Shown piece by piece: positions 19,586-47,866 of a stretch of 47,866 nucleotides of DNA. The notes under the pieces were generated by a model that saw only the letters and a list, made by a program, of their open reading frames with translations, ran no database searches and was not told the DNA's origin. How positions within the stretch are numbered: position 1 is the first letter of the stretch; each line of letters opens with the position of its first letter. The translations under genes and the position numbers were made by a program. Source of the DNA: Candidatus Pacearchaeota archaeon (GTDB lineage Archaea > Nanobdellota > Nanobdellia > Pacearchaeales > GW2011-AR1); NCBI GenBank assembly GCA_018304325.1, contig JAGVWM010000021.1, positions 1-47,866 on the forward strand. The letters run 5' to 3'.

Positions 19586-19839
19586 AAGGTTTTATTAATA
19601 AATAATTCTTGTTCATCTAGTCTTAGTTTGGTATTAATGCCTTTCTAGGGCCACACGCCTATTAACCAGTACATCATTTAAATTTATTTTATGTTATAAA
19701 ATACAATCTTGACATTAAGTAATAATTTTAATAAGAATAAATTATGAAATATGAAAAGATGGTGCTTCCTTTGAGAAAACTCATTGACTAGAAGTCCTTT
19801 TTAGGAAAGGTTAAGAGGCTATGTAGTTCTGTCGCTTAT

Positions 19840-39248: not shown

Positions 39249-40061
39249 TTATAAACTATCTAAAGGAGATTTAATATTCTGTAACTGGAAATTAGAAACA
39301 TGGGTATATATTTGTGTTGTTTCTAGCTTATTATGCCCTAAAAGTTTTTGGATAATTCTAATATCAACCCCATTTTCAAGCAGATGTGTTGCAAAACTAT
39401 GCCTTAATGTGTGGCAGCTTGCTTTTTTATTAATTGCAGATTTTTTAAGTGCACTTTCAAAAATTTTCTGAATAGTTTTTATTGTAATTTTTCCATTTCT
39501 ACCTTCAAATACATATTTACTATTATTTAGGGAAATATAATTTTTTAGTTCATTAGACAAACTTTCAGGGAGATTTACATATCTGTCTTTTTTACCTTTA
39601 GCTTCTTTGATTAATGCAATTTTCCTCTCAAAATTAACATCCTGTACCTTCAAATTTTGCAGTTCACTTACTCTTAAACCTAGTCCATATATTGTTTGAA
39701 GAATTAATCTATGTTTGGGATTATCTAAAGAATAAATTATTTTTTTTACTTCTTCTTTTGATAAAACAGAAGGTAGCCTTTTTTCTTTAGTTGGCCTTTT
39801 AATATCAAGCTTACTATTATAAATTCCAAAAGCAAATTTTAACGCACTAATTACAACATTTAAAGATATATTTGTCTGCCCTTTTTCATTTAAATAAGCC
39901 AAATATTTTTTCACATCTTCCTCATTTGAGAAAGATAAATCTTTATTGCTGAATTTAACAAAGTTTTCAATTATATTGGTATAAGATTTCTTAGTTTTAG
40001 GGCTAAAACCTCTTGCACTCATTTCTATTTTAAGTTTTTCAATACCATTTAGTTCACCCAT
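39249..40061 (-). CDS. Tyrosine recombinase, XerA/XerC/D-like (no IntI-type insertion seen)
   Basis: LGLRVSELQNLKVQDV...KGKKDRYVNLP...CHTLRHSFATHLLENGVDIRIIQKLLGHNKLETTQIYTHV. The start is taken at MGELNGIEK (40061), which has TTTATATACTTTATATGG upstream. The track's TTG start at 40214 reads through GC-rich non-coding DNA. Confidence 0.75.
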   Translation of the reverse strand: MGELNGIEKLKIEMSARGFSPKTKKSYTNIIENFVKFSNKDLSFSNEEDVKKYLAYLNEKGQTNISLNVVISALKFAFGIYNSKLDIKRPTKEKRLPSVLSKEEVKKIIYSLDNPKHRLILQTIYGLGLRVSELQNLKVQDVNFERKIALIKEAKGKKDRYVNLPESLSNELKNYISLNNSKYVFEGRNGKITIKTIQKIFESALKKSAINKKASCHTLRHSFATHLLENGVDIRIIQKLLGHNKLETTQIYTHVSNFQLQNIKSPLDSL

Positions 40062-40326
40062 ACAGGGAAATAACCATATAAAGTATATAAAATTATCTTT
40101 ATATGGAGTTGCTTGGCTTCGCCCAAATTGAGATTTCGCCCTTCTGGTTACTTGCTTTCCCCTTTTTTTCCGACATGGTGTTTTTGTCCCTGCTCCCTGC
40201 CCTTTAGGTTGCAAGTAATTCTCAGCCTTTTGATTTCTCGCTCAGTTTAACCTCACAAAAAGAAAACAGAAAAGAAATGCTTCGCACTTCTCATAACAAA
40301 GGTTAAACTAAATTGCTGAAACAGAC

Positions 40327-40713
40327 TTAATCTTCTCTCCAAACTTTTCTACAATGTTGGTCATAAATTACCCGTGCCGATTTGTATAATCTTTTTATTC
40401 CTTCAGAGTCAAATTCGCCTTTGGTAAATCTACGATAATGTCTTTGTATTGTTCTTTGTGAGACATTATCCAAATAAACTCCAAGCAGTTCTCTTTCCCC
40501 ATCATACATCGAGCTTTTGCTTTCCATACCAAAGGCTTTTTGTAAGAGAACATATTTCATCTCATCTAAGGTCGGATGTTCTTTTCTCATAATCTCTTCT
40601 AATCTTTGCCTTTCTTCTTCATACATTTTTAACATCCTCCCGATTGGACTATTTTCATGTTCTCTTCTTAACTCTTCAGTCATTTTTTCTATTGAACTTT
40701 TCCTTTTTGCCAT
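40327..40713 (-). CDS. Small basic protein with HTH-like segment (128 aa)
   Basis: LGVYLDNVSQRTIQRHYRRF is HTH-like. The ORF is bracketed by short nested inverted repeats. Confidence 0.45.
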   Translation of the reverse strand: MAKRKSSIEKMTEELRREHENSPIGRMLKMYEEERQRLEEIMRKEHPTLDEMKYVLLQKAFGMESKSSMYDGERELLGVYLDNVSQRTIQRHYRRFTKGEFDSEGIKRLYKSARVIYDQHCRKVWRED

Positions 40714-40979
40714 ATATTTTTGCGTTATGACCTGTATTTAAACTTTTGTTTGGGGTTTCAGCAACTACGCTACGAAATCGGCTGAGAACGAAATCTCAAC
40801 TCTCGGGGCACTTCGTGTGCCAGCCCGAGCCTTCCGCTTCGCTTCAGGTCAAGCAACAGCAGATTAAGAGGTAATTTCTTTTTGCTCCGCAAATCGCTTT
40901 CGTAGCGACCAGAAATTAGCCCAAATTTTTCAGTCATTTCTATTTTCAAATTAGCTGAAAAACTTCTTTTACCCCCAAT

Positions 40980-41150
40980 GTTAGTTTCAATTGCAAATTC
41001 TCTATACTTTGAAATAAAAACTGAAAATTAAGAGAGGACACTTCAATTCCCCAGACCACCCGCCCCTAAATTGTAGAAATTGTTGTAAATAAAAAGTGAG
41101 CCGCCTTGGTGCTTCGCACATTTTGTCTTGACTTCGTCAAGCAGAAAAAC
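40980..41150 (+). repeat. Long direct repeat, copy 1 (~171 bp)
   Basis: GTTAGTTTCAATTGCAAATTCTCTATAC...GGTGCTTCGCACATT has 7 mismatches in 143 nt against 47276-47418 by hand. It is followed by hairpin CTTGAC-TTC-GTCAAG and CAGAAAAAC. Confidence 0.8.
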
Positions 41151-41186
41151 AAAAGCTTTTATTAGTAGGTTTTATTTATTTCTATT

Positions 41187-42686
41187 ATGAGCAAAACATC
41201 TAAAAAACAAATAGTTGTTGGTTATCATCCTATTGCTAATCGCATTGGAGAAAAAATTTTGAATTCTGGCGGAAACGCTTTTGACGCTTTTGTAGCAACA
41301 ACTGCCGCCGAATGTGTATTGGGTGAAGGGGTAACAAGTCTTGCAGGTCCTTTAGGGGCTTTGCTTTATGGTTCAAAATCAAAAAAGTGTTATTATCTTG
41401 ATGCTGGTTTTAACACGCCTCTGAATATTGGTAAAAAAGATAAAATTGGTGCAAGAGTTCCCGGAGCACCGGCAGGTCTTGAAGCTATTTCTAAAAAATT
41501 TGGAAAATTGCCTTTTCACAAAGTTCTTGAGCCGGCAATCCAACTTGCACGTAATGGTTTTAAGTTAAATAATTTGTATGCAGATTTAATTTTCTTCAAC
41601 AAAGAAAAATTGAAAAAAAGCCAATACGGGAAACAAAAATTTTTTCAAAATAATAAACCTCTTGCAAAAGGAAAGATTTTAAAGTTTCCAGAAGTTGCAG
41701 TTGTTCTTGAATCTCTTGCTAAAAAAGGCTCAAAATATATGTATGAAGGGGAATGGGCTAAAAAAGTTGTTAAAGAAGTGCAAAAGAAAGGCGGAATTCT
41801 TACTATGAAAGATTTTTCTCAATATGAAATAAAATGGAGAAATCCAATCAAAATAAATTATAGAGATTATAAAATATATTCTACATCTGGAAGAACATTT
41901 GGAGGACTAGCGGTTTGTTTAGCATTAAAAGCTTTGGAGAATTTAGATATTTCTTCCTTTAAGAATCATTATTCAAATGATGCCACGGCTCTTGAAATTT
42001 TAATAAGGATTAACAATGAAGCAGAAAAAGTCGTGAATAATTTTAAACCTAAAGAACTCGATAATAATTTCCTTATCCAAAAATTAATTAATAAGAAAGC
42101 GCATGAAATATTGGAAAAAGTGCAAAAGGAAATAAAAATAAATAAATCTGTTCATGGAAACCATAGTTATCAAGTTTCTATTATAGATAAAGAAGGAAAT
42201 GCAATCACAGGAACAAATTCTATTCAATCTCTTCCTTGGGGAGAAGGGATTTTTGTTGAAGGAATTCCCTTAACTGCAAGCGGAATAGTAACTCCTTTTA
42301 GTACAAATTCCGGAGAAAGAGAATTATCTGCTTTATCAATGCACATGGGAATGAAGAGTTCAAAAGTTGCTTTCATAAGCGGAGCATTTGGTTCTTCATT
42401 AATTCCTGCCGAATTTCAGTTTCTAGTTAATATCATAGATTATAAACTTTCTGCGAAAAAAGCAACAACTCTTCCTAGATTTGGGACAACAGCATGGGAA
42501 ATGAAAAATAAAAAATATATACAAAAAGGAATTTGGCTAGATACGCGAATTAAAAAAAGCATAATCAATACCTTAAATAAACGAGGTTTAAAATTTGAAC
42601 AAGAAGGTTGGGTTGATACAGGATTCGGTTCCATTATACTTGTTAAACCTGATGGTTCTGTTGAGGGTTCAATTGCACCTGTTTAA
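41187..42686 (+). CDS. ggt: Gamma-glutamyltransferase-family protein (no signal peptide)
   Basis: HPIANRIGEKILNSGGNAFDAFVATTAAECV...; processing-site region GNHSYQVSIIDKEGNAITGTNSI. Confidence 0.7.
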   Translation: MSKTSKKQIVVGYHPIANRIGEKILNSGGNAFDAFVATTAAECVLGEGVTSLAGPLGALLYGSKSKKCYYLDAGFNTPLNIGKKDKIGARVPGAPAGLEAISKKFGKLPFHKVLEPAIQLARNGFKLNNLYADLIFFNKEKLKKSQYGKQKFFQNNKPLAKGKILKFPEVAVVLESLAKKGSKYMYEGEWAKKVVKEVQKKGGILTMKDFSQYEIKWRNPIKINYRDYKIYSTSGRTFGGLAVCLALKALENLDISSFKNHYSNDATALEILIRINNEAEKVVNNFKPKELDNNFLIQKLINKKAHEILEKVQKEIKINKSVHGNHSYQVSIIDKEGNAITGTNSIQSLPWGEGIFVEGIPLTASGIVTPFSTNSGERELSALSMHMGMKSSKVAFISGAFGSSLIPAEFQFLVNIIDYKLSAKKATTLPRFGTTAWEMKNKKYIQKGIWLDTRIKKSIINTLNKRGLKFEQEGWVDTGFGSIILVKPDGSVEGSIAPV

Positions 42687-42695
42687 ATCTTTTAC

Positions 42696-42725
42696 CTTCT
42701 TTTTTAGAAAAAAAGAAGCAAAAAA
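42696..42725. terminator. T/A-rich palindrome CTTCTTTTTTAGAAAAAAAGAAG + CAAAAAA after ggt
   Basis: Lies 10 nt after the ggt stop, between convergent genes. Related copies are at 43471-43500 and 46914-46940. Confidence 0.4.
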
Positions 42726-42742
42726 TTAAGTGCACTTTTCCC

Positions 42743-43147
42743 TTATTTGATCAACAGCAATGCTTCTTCAGGGCTAACAATCTTTATTCCTTGATATTCT
42801 TTTAATTTTAATAGATGTTTATCTTGACTTATAATTAAATCTGCATTTCCGCTTATTCCAGCTTCAAGAAATTTATTATCGTCAGGATCTTCCTTTATGA
42901 CATTAAGTTTTATTTTTGGATTAATAATAACAGAACTTTCGATGATTAAATTTCTCCATTCTTCAATCATTTCATCAGACATTTGAATTTTGAAATTTCT
43001 TAATGTTTCTGCAAATTCTTTTAAAATATCCATAGAACTGACTAACTCAAATTTCTTATTTTTCCATTTGTCTATTATTTGGGAACAAAAATTTCCCTCC
43101 CAGAAAATTCCAGAGACAAAAACATTAGTATCAATGATTGCTCTCAT
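42743..43147 (-). CDS. PIN-domain toxin
   Basis: AIIDTNVFVSG...; DPDDNKFLEAGISGNADLIISQDKHL. Confidence 0.65.
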   Translation of the reverse strand: MRAIIDTNVFVSGIFWEGNFCSQIIDKWKNKKFELVSSMDILKEFAETLRNFKIQMSDEMIEEWRNLIIESSVIINPKIKLNVIKEDPDDNKFLEAGISGNADLIISQDKHLLKLKEYQGIKIVSPEEALLLIK

Positions 43148-43404
43148 TTTTTCCGAGTCTGTTTGATTGCATTCTCTACATCAGGCTCTTTTATTCCTTT
43201 CTTTTTAGCAAAATCTCTTGTTTTTTTGAGTAGTTTATCTATTCCGCTAAAAGAAGGCATTTCCAACTTTTTCAATACAATTGTACTATCTTCCCCAATA
43301 ACAACAAACTTTTCTCCCTCGTGAATTTTCATTTTATCTCTTAAACTCTGGGGAATTACAACTTGCCCTCTTGAACTTACGCTTGTTATTTCAACTTTTT
43401 CCAT
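43144..43404 (-). CDS. AbrB/SpoVT-type antitoxin
   Basis: VSSRGQVVIPQSLRDKMKIHEGEKFVVIGEDSTIVLKK, with a 4-nt overlap with the PIN gene. Confidence 0.65.
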   Translation of the reverse strand: MEKVEITSVSSRGQVVIPQSLRDKMKIHEGEKFVVIGEDSTIVLKKLEMPSFSGIDKLLKKTRDFAKKKGIKEPDVENAIKQTRKK

Positions 43405-43470
43405 TTTTACCTCCTGATAAGTTTATATGATTGGTAAGATTATCTTATTTATAAATCTTTCGTTTAGAGT

Positions 43471-43500
43471 CTTCTTTCCCTAAAAAAAGAAACAAAAAAA
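43471..43500. repeat. Degenerate copy of the T/A-rich palindrome
   Basis: CTTCTTTCCCTAAAAAAAGAAACAAAAAAA. Together with 42696-42725 it brackets the PIN/AbrB module as imperfect direct repeats. Confidence 0.5.
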
Positions 43501-43732
43501 GCGCGCGCTTCCGTCCCCCACCCTAAAATAGTGCAGGTTCTCAAACTCTCTCCGCTTCGCTCCGAGCCACGACTTGCAGGCTCTCACTTTGTTCTAGGCG
43601 TTGAACAGACATTAAAAGGAAAATCCTTGCAGGATTTTGCCCAAATTTCTTGCTTATTGATAAGCTTTTAGTTAGGCAAGAAACATCTTTTAATGTCATA
43701 TGTTCTATTCAATAATTTCAGGGGCTAACGAA

Positions 43733-43774
43733 AGGGGCAATTTTAACTAAACGAAACGACGGGGGGAATTCCGT
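43733..43774 (+). repeat. Inverted repeat, left arm, flanking the AsnB-fusion gene
   Basis: AGGGGCAATTTT-(16 nt)-GGGGGGAATTCCGT. The outer 12 nt and inner 14 nt are exact reverse complements of 46944-46985. Confidence 0.75.
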
Positions 43775-43831
43775 AACGACGACTTTAAAAATAGCAATGT
43801 TTATAATTAAATTAGATAATATTATATTAAG

Positions 43832-46800
43832 ATGTGCGGAATAACTGCTATATTTGGAAATTATAAAGAAAAAGAGGATTTCGTAAAGATTTCTCTAGAT
43901 AAAATTCAACATAGAGGAACGAGCATATTTGAATATAAAATATTTAGTAATGGCGCTCTTGGTGCAAATAGGTTGCCTATTGTTGATAGAGAACACGGAC
44001 AACAACCTCTATCAAATGAAGATAATACTATTTTTGCAGTTCAGAATGGGGAGATATTTAATTATATTTCAATAAAAGAAATGCTTCAAAAGAAAGGTCA
44101 TAAATTTAAGACTAATTGTGATACTGAAGTTCTTGCTCATCTCTATGAAGAGTTTGGAGAAAAACTAATTGATTATATTGATTCAGAGATGTTTTCTTTT
44201 GTAATTTATGACTCAAAAAAAGATAAATTCTTTGTCGCTCGAGATAGATTTGGAGTAAAACCCTTATTTTATGCCATTGATAAAAACAATTTCTATTTTG
44301 GTTCTGAATTAAAACAGCTAGTTCAATTTGACTTTATCAAAGAAGTGAAAATCTTTCCAAAAGGGCATTATATGGCTGATGGGAAACTAAAAAAGTATTA
44401 CGATTTAAAGTATGATAATTCTATTAAAAACTTAGAGCATGCCAAAACTAAATTAACGAATTTAATCGTAGAAGCAGTTAAAAAAAGAGTAGATACGGAT
44501 TTACCTATTGCTGTTTTGCTAAGCGGTGGAGTGGACAGCAGTTTAATTATGGAAATAGCCACAAGATTCCATAAAGATGTTACTGCTTTTATATTGGGTA
44601 TGCCTGGTTCTTCTGATTATGAAGCCGCAGTTAAGTTATGTAAAGATAATAAATACAAACATAAAATAGTTTACCCTAATGTTGATTATGCCAAAGAATT
44701 TGAGAAATTGATTTATCATTTAGAATTGTATGAGGCACAAGTAATCAGACAATCTTTTGCGTTGGATATTCTCGCAAAAGAAGTAGTAAGAACAGGTTAT
44801 AGAATTGCTTTAGTTGGTGAAGCATCAGACGAAATATTTGGAGGATATAATGAGTTTTCTCGTTTGAATAATGAAAATATCAATAAAGGATGTTTCATGA
44901 TTACTGATGATTTAGAAAAAAGTCATAATGTTAGAGTGGATAGAATGAGTATGAAACATGCTCTAGAAACAAGAGCACCTTTCTTTGATACAAAAGTTGT
45001 TGAATTTGCTATGAAAATTGATGGAAAACTTAAAGTAAAAAGAGAAAATCATCAAATAACAACAAAATATATTTTAAGAAAAGTTGCTGAACAATTTTTG
45101 CCTGATTATATAACTTGGAGGTACAAGGTTCCTTTTGCAAATGGTGCTGGGATGAATGTTGGATATAATTTTAGGTCTCAAGATGGAGATGTTGCAAAAG
45201 AAATATTATCCTATAAAAAGGCAAGTTTAGACAAAAAAACTAAAGAAAAGTATGGGTTTCTAACTGATGAAGAATTAGTTTATTTTGATGCATACAAAAC
45301 TTTCAAATTCGACAAACTTTTCAATAACTGGCAGAGAATTATCACAAAGGAAACACTTAGCAAAATAGATGAAAACACTAATGAAATCAGAATTCTTGTT
45401 GCAGAATTTGGGAGACTTCCTCTTTATTTCCCAGTTTATCTTGCTTCTAGAGTAAAAATATACAAAAAACATAAGTTAGATGTAGATTTTATTACTTCTG
45501 GCGGTGATGATTTAACTTATAATTCCTTATTATCTGGTTCTGCTCAGATAGGAATAGCAGACCCAATTTTTACATTTACAGAGAATTTTTCCACTAAGGG
45601 GAAGATTATCGGACAATTGGTTGGAAAAGTGCCTATTGTTGCTGTAACTTTGAATCCTTCAATAAAAGTAACTCAAATAAATGATTTAGAAAAATATAGG
45701 ATTGGAACATTTCAAGAATATTCAACAACTAATACTTTAATGAAAGAACTGCTTCCAACTAAAGAATTAATCCCAATAAAGTATTCTGAAATTACTCAGG
45801 CATTAAAAGATAGAAAAATTGACATAGGAATTATGACTCCTGATCTGGCGTATGACTTAATAGGGAAAGGCGGCCATATTATATACAAATTTGAAGAGAA
45901 ATTTGGAGATTATCTATTTACAGGCGTAACAATATGTGATAATCTAGACCCGAGATTTCATCCCGCCATTAAATCATTCTTAGCATCTATTAAAGAATCT
46001 GTAAATCTTATAAAAAAGAATAAGAAGGAAGCATTTGCCCAGTTTAAAATGGAATTCCCAGAAATGCTTAATCATGAAGAAATGTTTGATTATCTGATTC
46101 ATTTTTGGAATAAAAAACTTACTATATCTGAAAGTGGAATAAAGAGAGCAAAACATACGTGGCAAAAAGTATATCCTTGGTTAATAAAATCTAATATGCC
46201 TCAATTCATAAAACCACGACCAGAAGATGAAATCTTAAGAATCCTAAGCGATAGAGATATATCTAGAGATATTCCTTATATGGAAGATAAAATGGCAGAT
46301 ATTATATGCCAGAATATAAAAGAGAAAACTCCAATATCTCTAGTTGGATTTTGGGGTGCTTCTGACAAGCATAAATTCGATGAAAAAGATAATAATGCAA
46401 TAAACAAGCTTAAGAGCCTAAATTCTGAAATTAAGAATTTGCATAAGCCAGGAATTGAATTTACTTTTATTTTAGCAGATGAACACGCAAGATTAAATAA
46501 ATGTAATAAAGAAGCATATAGCCTATATTTAAAAGAAATTGAAAAAAAACTTAAAGAAGCGGGATTCAAAACTATTTTCTTAAGCGAAATCTGGAAGAAA
46601 TATAAAATCTCTGACGAGTTAATCTACGCAAAACTAAAGAAATTAAAAGATTCTGAATGGAGAGACGTAATAAATCATAAAGAATTAGAAAAGTCATCAA
46701 GAAACAGGGAATTAAAAGATTATAAGCAAGAAGCGAAACGATACTTTATTTGCAGAAAGATGGAATCAGAAGCTCTGCTCAAAGAATTTCCAAATATGAT

Positions 46801-46912
46801 ATTTAACACATATGGAGAAGATATACACCAAAATCTATTCCCTGATTGCCCAATCATTTACTTTTGGGTAACTAACCGAGGATATACGATTTCACCTTGG
46901 TTGGATAAATGA
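43832..46912 (+). CDS. Three-part fusion: asparagine synthetase (glutamine-hydrolysing) + periplasmic-binding-protein-like (NMT1/SsuA-type) domain + unknown C-terminal domain
   Basis: The N-terminal MCGI (Ntn Cys2), SGGVDSS PP-loop and EASDEIFGGY match AsnB. The middle, RILVAEFGRLPLYFPVYLASRVKIYKKHKLDVDFITSGG...GIADP, looks like a type 2 PBP. The last ~230 aa (LVGFWGASDK...ILADEHARLN...TISPWL) are unassigned. Confidence 0.7.
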   Translation: MCGITAIFGNYKEKEDFVKISLDKIQHRGTSIFEYKIFSNGALGANRLPIVDREHGQQPLSNEDNTIFAVQNGEIFNYISIKEMLQKKGHKFKTNCDTEVLAHLYEEFGEKLIDYIDSEMFSFVIYDSKKDKFFVARDRFGVKPLFYAIDKNNFYFGSELKQLVQFDFIKEVKIFPKGHYMADGKLKKYYDLKYDNSIKNLEHAKTKLTNLIVEAVKKRVDTDLPIAVLLSGGVDSSLIMEIATRFHKDVTAFILGMPGSSDYEAAVKLCKDNKYKHKIVYPNVDYAKEFEKLIYHLELYEAQVIRQSFALDILAKEVVRTGYRIALVGEASDEIFGGYNEFSRLNNENINKGCFMITDDLEKSHNVRVDRMSMKHALETRAPFFDTKVVEFAMKIDGKLKVKRENHQITTKYILRKVAEQFLPDYITWRYKVPFANGAGMNVGYNFRSQDGDVAKEILSYKKASLDKKTKEKYGFLTDEELVYFDAYKTFKFDKLFNNWQRIITKETLSKIDENTNEIRILVAEFGRLPLYFPVYLASRVKIYKKHKLDVDFITSGGDDLTYNSLLSGSAQIGIADPIFTFTENFSTKGKIIGQLVGKVPIVAVTLNPSIKVTQINDLEKYRIGTFQEYSTTNTLMKELLPTKELIPIKYSEITQALKDRKIDIGIMTPDLAYDLIGKGGHIIYKFEEKFGDYLFTGVTICDNLDPRFHPAIKSFLASIKESVNLIKKNKKEAFAQFKMEFPEMLNHEEMFDYLIHFWNKKLTISESGIKRAKHTWQKVYPWLIKSNMPQFIKPRPEDEILRILSDRDISRDIPYMEDKMADIICQNIKEKTPISLVGFWGASDKHKFDEKDNNAINKLKSLNSEIKNLHKPGIEFTFILADEHARLNKCNKEAYSLYLKEIEKKLKEAGFKTIFLSEIWKKYKISDELIYAKLKKLKDSEWRDVINHKELEKSSRNRELKDYKQEAKRYFICRKMESEALLKEFPNMIFNTYGEDIHQNLFPDCPIIYFWVTNRGYTISPWLDK

Positions 46913-46913
46913 T

Positions 46914-46940
46914 CTTCTTTTTGTAAAAAGAAGCAAAAAC
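46914..46940. terminator. T/A-rich palindrome CTTCTTTTTGTAAAAAGAAG + CAAAAAC after the AsnB fusion
   Basis: Starts 2 nt after the stop codon and belongs to the same family as 42696-42725. Confidence 0.4.
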
Positions 46941-46943
46941 ACG

Positions 46944-46985
46944 ACGGAATTCCCCCCTACGAAACGACGACTGAAAATTGCCCCT
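46944..46985 (-). repeat. Inverted repeat, right arm
   Basis: ACGGAATTCCCCCC-(16 nt)-AAAATTGCCCCT. Confidence 0.75.
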
Positions 46986-47275
46986 TGATACTTATTCTTG
47001 ATGGCTCACTGTGTTCGCTTGATTGAATACGCCCCTGAAATTACTTTGATTTTTTGCTCTTCGAGCATCGTTGCACTAAAATTCAAGTCCTAACGGACGA
47101 GTTTAACAGGGCTTAACCGACTACGAAACCTTGCAGGTTTCTCCGTCCAAATTTTGCCCCATCTCTGAAAATTTCTCCAGCTCTGTTCTGATTTTCCAGC
47201 TCTGAACTGTGGTTCGAGGGAAAATCCTCACGAGGTCGAAATTTTCGAGGGGTCAAAACTTCGTATATCCCTGAC

Positions 47276-47447
47276 GTTAGTTTCAATTGCAAATTCTCTA
47301 TACTTTAAAATAAAATCCAAAAATTAAGAGAGGGCACTTCAATTCCCCCGACCACCCGCCCCTAAATTGTAGAAATTGTTGTAAATAAAAGGTGAGCCGC
47401 CTTGGTGCTTCGCACATTTACTCTCGCTTTCAGCGAGGCAGAAAAAC
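47276..47447 (+). repeat. Long direct repeat, copy 2 (~172 bp)
   Basis: Same core as 40980-41122. It is followed by a different-sequence hairpin CTCGC-TTTCA-GCGAG and CAGAAAAAC. Confidence 0.8.
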
Positions 47448-47532
47448 TTCTTTTATCCGACCAACGAAAAACTCACGAAATTAAAATTTCGTCCAACAAA
47501 GGATAAAAGGCTTCGCCCAAATTTTTTTGATA

Positions 47533-47866
47533 TTATTGGGGAGTTTTCTTAATATCCTTTTTCATTTCCTTTAATAAATCTAATAATGAATCTCCTAAAT
47601 CATTACGATAAAATGTTTCTTCTTTAAGTCCTGTTTTTGTATGAGAATAAATTTTCCATCCAACCCCTTTATTAGAATCAATAAAAGAATCTGCCAATCC
47701 ATCATATAGAGTTTTATCCTTTCCTGCTTTTTGGAATTTGGCTAAAGGAACTCTGACTTTTGTAAAGGTAGTTAAAACTTCATTAAGTTTTAGTTTGGTA
47801 TTTTCACTCAATGAATTTCTTTTTTTATCAATATCGTTTAGAAATCTAATTAATTCATAAGCTCCT
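47533..47866 (-). CDS. Hypothetical protein, C-terminal part (frame open to window edge)
   Basis: The track starts at a TTG. The same frame continues upstream (AYELIRFLNDIDKKRNSLSENTK...) to the end of the window. Confidence 0.45.
   Translation of the reverse strand, partial: GAYELIRFLNDIDKKRNSLSENTKLKLNEVLTTFTKVRVPLAKFQKAGKDKTLYDGLADSFIDSNKGVGWKIYSHTKTGLKEETFYRNDLGDSLLDLLKEMKKDIKKTPQ

Follow-up and report, generated by a model that had tools for sequence, protein, structure and literature searches.

Cassette leader-like repeats and a putative integron-like array linked to a XerA-type recombinase gene in a Pacearchaeota contig

We analysed a contig of Candidatus Pacearchaeota archaeon (JAGVWM010000021.1, assembly GCA_018304325.1), of which positions 1 to 47,866 form the whole stretch examined, hereafter the window. 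A preliminary description made from the sequence alone had noted, close to the right end, a direct repeat pair of 171 bp bracketing a segment of 6.1 kb. A repeat search of the window returned one repeat family, at 40959-41135 and 47255-47431 (177 nt, 90% identical ungapped, spacing 6296). To the left of the repeats lies a gene for a tyrosine recombinase of the XerA type, divergent from what follows, and imperfect palindromes resembling the attC recombination sites of integrons lie just upstream of both copies and once between them. The features on which the analysis turns are as follows.

39249-40061, minus: XerA-type tyrosine recombinase gene (xerA), 270 aa, ATG at 40061, divergent from the array
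40074-40110 (arms 40074-40106), no strand: palindrome CCATATAAAG-(13 nt)-CTTTATATGG, then AGTT, 13 nt upstream of the xerA start codon
40108-40350, plus: U0, a degenerate unit of 'type II', the type normally found beside xerA, placed by alignment to four xerA-adjacent units
40851-40986, plus: attC-like site a, R'' AAGCAAC, AG, L'' CAGATTAAGAGG ... L' TTCTTTTACCC, CCAAT, R' GTTAGTT
40980-41150, plus: repeat copy 1, a putative cassette leader of 'type I', ending right after CAGAAAAAC; its parts are R' GTTAGTT (40980-40986), a GC core (41031-41067), hairpin P0 GTGC-TTC-GCAC (41109-41119) and hairpin H1
43601-43708, plus: attC-like site c, well formed, R'' GTTGAAC, AG, L'' ACATTAAAAG(G), two inner hairpins, L' CTTTTAATGT, CATAT, R' GTTCTAT
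47101-47282, plus: attC-like site b, R'' GTTTAAC, AG, L'' GGCTTAACCGA ... L' TTCGTATATCCC, TGAC, R' GTTAGTT
47276-47447, plus: repeat copy 2, a putative leader of 'type I' with hairpin H2
47404-47530, plus: complete structured module, 150.3 bits with covariance model R1

The repeat pair and its structured continuation

In an in-register alignment, 136 of 143 bases are common to 40980-41122 and 47276-47418, which reproduces exactly the count of seven differences given in the preliminary description (at 41011, 41020, 41022, 41023, 41038, 41053 and 41095 in copy 1 coordinates). As had also been claimed, each core is followed by a hairpin of different sequence and the same geometry, CTTGAC-TTC-GTCAAG in copy 1 (H1, 41127-41141) and CTCGC-TTTCA-GCGAG in copy 2 (H2, 47423-47437), and then by the identical CAGAAAAAC (41142-41150 and 47439-47447). 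The sequence GAAAAACTTCTTTTA(C/T)CC was likewise found where it had been reported, 5' of copy 1 (40956-40974) and 3' of copy 2 (47440-47458). The motif GAAAAACTTCTTTTAYCC, present before copy 1 and after copy 2, gave two matches in the window with up to three mismatches, versus 0.18 expected from shuffles, and it recurs as a half-site, both as the L' arm of attC-like sites and as an arm of helix P1 of the module described below.

The core of the leader reads CCCCCGACCACCCGCCCC. On the minus strand of 41031-41067 and 47327-47363 its invariant part is GGGGCGGGTGGTC(G/T)GGGG, a run of G-tracts, and a related motif, CCCACCC...ATAG..GAGAG, occurs in other leader types and upstream of attC-like sites. 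This motif may bind a protein or have a structural role.

The genome assembly (663 kb in 39 contigs, 75% complete, 29% G+C) holds only the two copies, and no coding DNA or flanks are duplicated with them. Elsewhere, 18 of 61 relatives carry pieces of the repeat, and a search of 401 genomes of the order found them in 109, representing 63 of 153 genera; many of the family matches lie within a few hundred bases of contig ends. In alignments of the relatives, a near-invariant core, AGAGGRCACTTYAAWWCCCCCGACCACCCGCCCCT, is joined to alternative left parts. The two hairpins, which had been called covarying, did not diverge from each other by compensatory change: both versions, each with its own flanks, occur in other genomes (H1 in G003:C11, G187, G110 and G329; H2 in G003:C14, G034, G216 and G305), and they are therefore old alternative alleles. 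The repeats are thus no private duplication: they are a conserved leader module that heads otherwise unrelated cassettes across many related genomes.

Where complete, the leader is continued by a structured module of five helices. Copy 2 runs on into the complete module, which is absent from copy 1; the latter is truncated, lacks helices P1, P2 and P3, and matches model R1 only weakly (36 bits, 41108-41164). The module consists of hairpin P0 (stem-TTC-stem), ACAGATAG, hairpin H and the box AGAAAAACTTC; then helix P1 (TTTTATCC paired with GGATAAAA) around GACCAAC, hairpin P2 and TAAC; and finally hairpin P3 (GGC-TTC-GCC) followed by CAAATTTTT. In the window, P1 pairs 47451-47458 with 47501-47508, P2 is at 47476-47491 and P3 at 47509-47517, followed by CAAATTTTTTT. 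The module ends in a T-run that doubles as a box, CCAAATTTTT, resembling a transcription factor B recognition element and TATA box (BRE/TATA-like), and a co-directional gene starts 45-100 nt after the module in about 60% of cases. We noted in addition that GGGG(A)GTT is conserved 12-18 nt past the CAAATTTTT box even where no gene follows (in the window at 47539-47546).

In the loci fetched from relatives, nhmmer found about 90 instances of the module. RNAalifold recovered P1 on a plain MAFFT alignment, with two-sided changes in 8, 17 and 12 sequences at three pairs, and anchor-based extraction gave fully paired variants of P1 such as TTTTACCC/GGGTAAAA, TTTTATCG/CGATAAAA and TCTTAACC/GGTTAAGA. 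In the R1 alignment of 83 units, which a covariance model fitted to the structure supplied to it, 90.8% of cells were paired versus 77.0% after shuffling, and 265 cells had changed on both sides versus 68.9 expected. The covariation score was 0.307 versus 0.106 in shuffles, and 0.04-0.075 in slid controls; none of 500 shuffles reached the observed value for pairing or for covariation. Across these units the position of H is nearly always occupied by a hairpin, built from at least 10 unrelated stem sequences. The earlier suggestion of selection on a fold therefore holds for the hairpin, whose position is kept while its sequence changes, and not for the repeat as a whole, whose RNA folds on the two strands (z +0.70 and +0.63) are no better than those of shuffled sequence. 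The Rfam search that had been proposed returned no family for either copy, with Rfam 15 at the gathering threshold or at a permissive E of up to 10.

The family has 294 genomes, of which model R1 matches 74 (among the 81 of high quality, 26). Each of these has one to eight copies, and few are in the window's own genus; so patchy a distribution excludes a housekeeping RNA. The units often stand in same-strand arrays, 1-9 kb apart. The last part retained in truncated copies elsewhere varies (the core, the G module or H), and these copies stand directly before genes.

Several other identities were considered and set aside. For a tRNA or split tRNA, ARAGORN gave only a tRNA-Asp at 883-957. Both RNase P RNA and signal recognition particle RNA are encoded elsewhere in the genome, so that a degenerate form of either is no candidate. 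On reading, we saw no ACA or C/D boxes and no K-turn of the kind expected of H/ACA or C/D guide RNAs, and no transposase among the scanned neighbours that would point to an omegaRNA or bridge RNA. As regards replication-origin boxes, no Orc1/Cdc6 gene was noticed among the neighbouring open reading frames scanned, and no search was aimed at them.

Recombinase gene, attC-like sites and cassette edges

The recombinase scores 237.9 bits with NCBIfam NF040815 (recomb_XerA_Arch, cut-off 220), matches Phage_integrase and SAM_4 in Pfam, and aligns end to end with P. abyssi XerA (4A8E), its best solved relative (E 1e-50). A XerA homologue adjoins a unit in 16 of 79 loci, is divergent from it in all 16, and lies beside leader-only copies in five further loci. 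The closest orthologue of the window gene is in G010 (86% DNA identity), where otherwise only a 60-nt piece of U0 is common to the two loci. The genome encodes a second XerA homologue (G000:C28:13116-13985, about 44-47% identical), in a compact and ordinary gene context with no modules; this is likely the housekeeping copy.

In the window and in relatives, a palindrome followed by (A/G)(T/G)GTT adjoins the xerA gene. Its inverted arms are perfect over 10-12 bp in the relatives, where the spacer is 6 bp and the palindrome ends 2-4 nt before ATGTT, as in GATTATCAATA-ATAAAC-TATTGATAATC, ATCATATCAGAA-CATTAT-TTCTGATATGAT and GGTATCATGA-GTTAAT-TCATGATACC. The window palindrome at 40074-40110 is a candidate double-stranded core site, attI-like or dif-like. 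It is shaped like a core-type Xer site and stands where attI would be in an integron, and a role as attI is suggested. When U0, which follows it, is aligned with four xerA-adjacent units of other genomes, GTTGCTTGGCTTCGCCCAAATT is invariant and remnants of P2, TAAC and P1b can be recognised; its nhmmer match is weak (40262-40353).

Just upstream of the leaders we found a palindrome of the form nnnnAAC-AG-(L'', 11 nt)-(40-130 nt)-AACT-(L', 11 nt)-CGAT-GTTnnnn. By manual criteria, 26 sites in relatives are well formed, with covarying arm types GGCT/AGCC (8 sites), GGGA/TCCC (7), CGAT/ATCG (6) and GCAT/ATGC (1). Mean arm complementarity in these sites was 7.70 of 11 versus 5.99 +/- 0.22 with shuffled partners (1000 shuffles, highest 6.81). 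One position of L'' is regularly bulged or mismatched, and the best DNA fold is that of L102:1264-1397 (z -6.6). Site c of the window adds a fifth arm type, ACAT/ATGT; as single-stranded DNA it is predicted to form a GAACA/TGTTC base stem, a 3-nt bulge and an L stem of 10 bp (z -4.45 on the plus and -4.29 on the minus strand). The halves of sites a and b are homologous to halves of relatives' sites.

The first base of each repeat copy is the G of the conserved GTT, in site a at 40980 and in site b at 47276. The preliminary description had offered, among other options, that the repeats were att-like sites or cassette boundaries. The former does not fit, as the 171 bp only begins at the att-like crossover triplet GTT and would itself be the leader of a cassette; the latter agrees with what we found, since the repeats stand at cassette boundaries and adjoin a tyrosine recombinase gene. 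The bracketed interval, however, is not a single segment. With the further recombination-type site c inside it, the 6.1 kb resolve into two cassettes, and the repeats become the leaders of cassettes 1 and 3, which gives the following division:

40981-43702: cassette 1
43703-47276: cassette 2
from 47277: cassette 3, within which the contig ends

In other genomes, homology edges lie at GTT as well. G216 and G110 have 1.76 kb in common, 91% identical, which starts exactly at GTTCAAC, while the halves of the sites upstream are unrelated, and several other homology edges lie no more than 4 nt from GATGTT. In G220:C17, four strong units stand on one strand, 2.1-2.6 kb apart and immediately beside a XerA-type gene. 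The cassettes of this array show exchange between genera: their DNA matches that of cassettes in other genera at 80-92% identity, and their neighbours differ.

An integron-like reading and its rivals

Taken together, these observations suggest that the repeats are probably cassette leaders in an integron-like array linked to XerA. The last 8.6 kb of the contig would form this array, with xerA on the minus strand and, on the plus strand, a palindromic core site ending in GTT, U0 and then the cassettes. Separated by attC-like imperfect palindromes (..AAC-AG-L''...L'-spacer-GTT..), the cassettes would be joined by integron-type recombination at the G|TT with which each of them starts. The recombinase is predicted to act on attC-like sites folded as single strands, recombining them among themselves and with the site beside its own gene, which would result in insertion, excision and shuffling of circular cassettes. 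Our guess is that the leader contributes a promoter and hairpins of structural use, perhaps together with a small RNA.

The loops of the module bear on the question of which strand folds. In the 83 units CTTCG occurs 141 times and CGAAG 6 times, with about 6 expected, which means that most loops are C(TTC)G on the plus strand and C(GAA)G on the minus strand. The latter is the very stable DNA mini-hairpin of the d(GCGAAGC) type, and for this reason the bottom (minus) strand is the likelier one to be folded. The stems also contain 72 A.C mismatches (a wobble on the minus strand) versus 41 G.T, an excess that comes mostly from two columns. As RNA, the plus strand of the module folds better (z -2.6) than the minus strand (z -0.8). 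We lean towards a role as folded bottom-strand DNA, which would not exclude a role as leader RNA or promoter.

Integrons and clusters of attC sites lacking integron-integrases (CALINs) have been known in archaea only since 2022 (Ghaly et al. 2022, PMC9668308), where the integrase is defined by an IntI-specific domain and most arrays are without an integrase. Their attC sites have R'', L'', L' and R' boxes, basal AAC and GTT, an asymmetric spacer and a variable inner part (PMC9668308 and established knowledge). The array described here resembles integrons in a tyrosine recombinase gene divergent from a one-directional array, in attC-like palindromes and cassette edges at GTT, in toxin-antitoxin cargo, patchy distribution and cassettes common across taxa, and in sites whose structure is conserved while the sequence varies (site c and the 26 sites of relatives, manual criteria). 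The array departs from integrons in the regions between cassettes, which measure 300-600 nt and contain a long conserved leader and the five-helix module, and in the site on the recombinase side, a dif-like palindrome with a 6-bp spacer. With archaeal Xer/dif it has in common an enzyme that is XerA at equivalog level (NF040815) and, beside the gene in relatives, palindromes whose arms measure about 11 bp around a spacer of 6 bp. It differs from Xer/dif in that the genome encodes a second XerA homologue, the array copy travelling with the array, and in that only the T1 palindromes described below and those next to xerA approach an 11-6-11 shape; neither repeat copy contains such a dif site. In Thermococcales, moreover, dif is not beside xerA (Cortez et al. 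2010, PMC2958812).

Other mobile DNA also uses Xer recombination, and the array shares traits with it. The integrative mobile element exploiting Xer (IMEX) CTX-phi uses a Xer recombinase and a folded single-stranded attP, and the pdif modules of Acinetobacter carry genes, often toxin-antitoxin genes, between short Xer-type palindromes; both rely on the host's housekeeping XerC/D and on dif-like sites of 28 bp. Here, too, a Xer-family recombinase is associated with mobile DNA and a toxin-antitoxin pair lies between T1 palindromes, whereas the dedicated, linked recombinase gene and the long attC-like hairpins have no counterpart in those systems. Tycheposons and islands at tRNA genes are similar in growing by accretion and in being marked by direct repeats of part of an RNA-gene-like sequence, the full copy of which stands at one end, and differ from the interval studied here, which contains no integrase, whose target is not a tRNA and whose repeat edges lie at GTT.

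A number of findings weigh against an integron-like array. The recombinase, the activity of which is a prediction, lacks the IntI-specific domain that defines integron integrases: its residues 182-195 span the region opposite residues 187-245 of V. cholerae IntI4 (2A3V), and the integron integrase model TIGR02249 matches at 213.9 bits, below its cut-off of 265, and in two stretches. The cassettes of 2.7 and 3.6 kb carry several genes on both strands, unlike those of classical integrons, and the same applies to G220. In sites a (DNA fold z -4.1) and b (z -3.8) the arms are mismatched, and neither the R/L stem of the one nor the base stem of the other is predicted; site a, with arms that no longer match, would be of hybrid origin or in decay. 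Scanned for generic AAC...GTT palindromes, the genome gave 13 matches, versus 9-22 in shuffled genomes, site c being the sole 10/10 match; the pattern alone is thus not significant and becomes so only through family homology and position. Homology edges also cluster at H | AGAAAAAC, where copy 1 stops, at CCCAAAT| and at T1 palindromes, so that part of the exchange may come from homologous recombination between modules or from another kind of site. The fit of the R1 alignment to its supplied structure, and the two columns behind most of the A.C excess, temper the figures for covariation and for strand.

We weighed four other explanations. The units could be genes of a small-RNA family, transcribed from a TATA-like box that precedes the CCCACCC / CCACCCGCCCC motif and terminated at the T-run after P3, the two copies being paralogous genes (copy 2 intact, copy 1 truncated) and their position in a variable region incidental. 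Such genes would account for five covarying helices, the better RNA fold of the plus strand, the A/T-rich boxes upstream, the terminal T-run and the frequent co-directional gene downstream. They would not account for units that are arrayed and linked to a recombinase gene, are confined to 25% of the family's genomes with few in the window's own genus, belong to no Rfam family, carry triloops that read C(GAA)G from the opposite strand and are truncated at many points directly before genes. We consider this explanation unlikely, and it is compatible with an integron-like array, as a cassette can carry an RNA gene. The same truncations, with the left edges of the repeats at GTT and not at the CAGAAAAAC box, also argue against tandem accretion at an RNA-gene target, of the kind seen at tRNA and tmRNA genes and in tycheposons, in which elements carrying the 5' part of the unit would insert at that box and afterwards be flanked by a truncated 5' copy (copy 1) and a reconstituted full gene (copy 2). 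That copy 1 ends after CAGAAAAAC where copy 2 continues, that the two hold different hairpin alleles, as expected from different sources, and that homology edges lie at H | AGAGAAAAAC in G220, G109 and G131 would all suit accretion. We nevertheless find it improbable, because the interval 41151-47275 encodes only a gamma-glutamyltranspeptidase, a PIN/AbrB pair and an asparagine-synthase fusion, with no integrase, and contains site c.

It is comparably improbable that no site-specific recombination takes place and that the modules are regulatory or terminator-promoter blocks of a hypervariable island, whose genes are swapped by homologous recombination. Homology edges at the borders of several module types, the mismatched sites a and b and a generic palindrome scan no better than chance are what such an island would show; against it stand attC-like sites whose arms covary but whose AAC and GTT are invariant, and a XerA-type gene that in 16 of 16 cases adjoins the unit in divergent orientation, with core-type palindromes before GTT beside it. 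A recent, functionless, local segmental duplication, to which the presence of just two copies in the genome and their 95% identity might point, is very hard to believe: more than 100 genomes contain homologues of the repeats, the two hairpin alleles are of old origin, and neither flanking nor coding DNA was copied with them.

Integrons, for which IntI is the defining enzyme, are regarded as having branched off from Xer-like recombinases. Judged from its sequence, the array would function like an integron but fall outside the definition by the IntI domain, and would be a variant in cassette size, in gene orientation and in its structured leader. We are evenly divided on the larger proposal that a XerA-type recombinase without the IntI domain runs a true gene-capture system in archaea with small genomes, as an independent or ancestral form of integron; the parts of that system would be attC-like sites of folded DNA, a dif-like docking site beside the recombinase gene and cassettes with a common structured leader rich in stable GAA mini-hairpins. 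An array of this type in about a quarter of one DPANN-type family, with a plain XerA-type enzyme, would change the picture of integrons. If the reading is correct, it would provide a candidate recombinase for orphan (integrase-less) archaeal arrays, suggest a route from Xer/dif to integron-type recombination and explain gene exchange across genera in very small, host-dependent archaea; an unexplained repeat pair would turn into two cassette heads with a precise, testable junction. In the literature searched we found no account of XerA-linked cassette arrays in DPANN archaea, the 2022 paper on archaeal integrons being the sole related find.

Cassette cargo and other features

The genes and palindromes of the proposed cassettes are listed below.

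41187-42686, plus: cassette 1, gamma-glutamyltranspeptidase-family gene (ggt), Pfam G_glu_transpept, E 1e-69
42695-42725, no strand: T1, palindrome CTTCTTTTTT-AG-AAAAAAAGAAG at the 3' end of the gene, with further copies at 43472-43498 and 46913-46939
42743-43404, minus: cassette 1, PIN / AbrB-MazE toxin-antitoxin pair (Pfam)
43832-46912, plus: cassette 2, 1026-aa asparagine-synthase fusion (Pfam Asn_synthase, GATase_7 and NMT1; NCBIfam asn_synth_AEB)
47533-47865, minus: first gene of cassette 3, no Pfam or NCBIfam match, at the end of the contig

The ggt gene was found in just one other genome of 400 in a DNA search of the family, and the one homologue in relatives, partial and at the start of a contig, is uninformative on the edges of the cassette. 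The toxin-antitoxin pair is 80% identical in DNA to a pair in G003:C14 (homology over 42765-43466), where it lies on the other side of xerA. In the window, copies of T1 flank the pair. T1 has an 11-5/7-11 shape with 9 of 11 positions matching, loosely like dif; a 30-nt stretch of it is 100% identical in G003 and G034, which belong to other genera, and the edges of shared segments often lie beside palindromes of this type.

The asparagine-synthase protein of cassette 2 has an NMT1/THI5-like domain fused to it and about 330 C-terminal residues without a family match. Its gene is flanked within the cassette by inverted repeats of 43 nt (43732-43774 and 46944-46986) that are 77% complementary. In the G220 array (L139, G220:C17:20001-36257), xerA, the four strong units and further weak matches lie between 3527 and 16257, all on one strand; the cargo there includes winged-helix, NYN, DsbA-like and membrane proteins, several of them 82-92% identical to those in cassettes of other genera. 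Far from the array, at 19621-19827 on the plus strand of the window, we found an RT-16 RNA (Rfam RF03019, 81.1 bits, gathering score 50).

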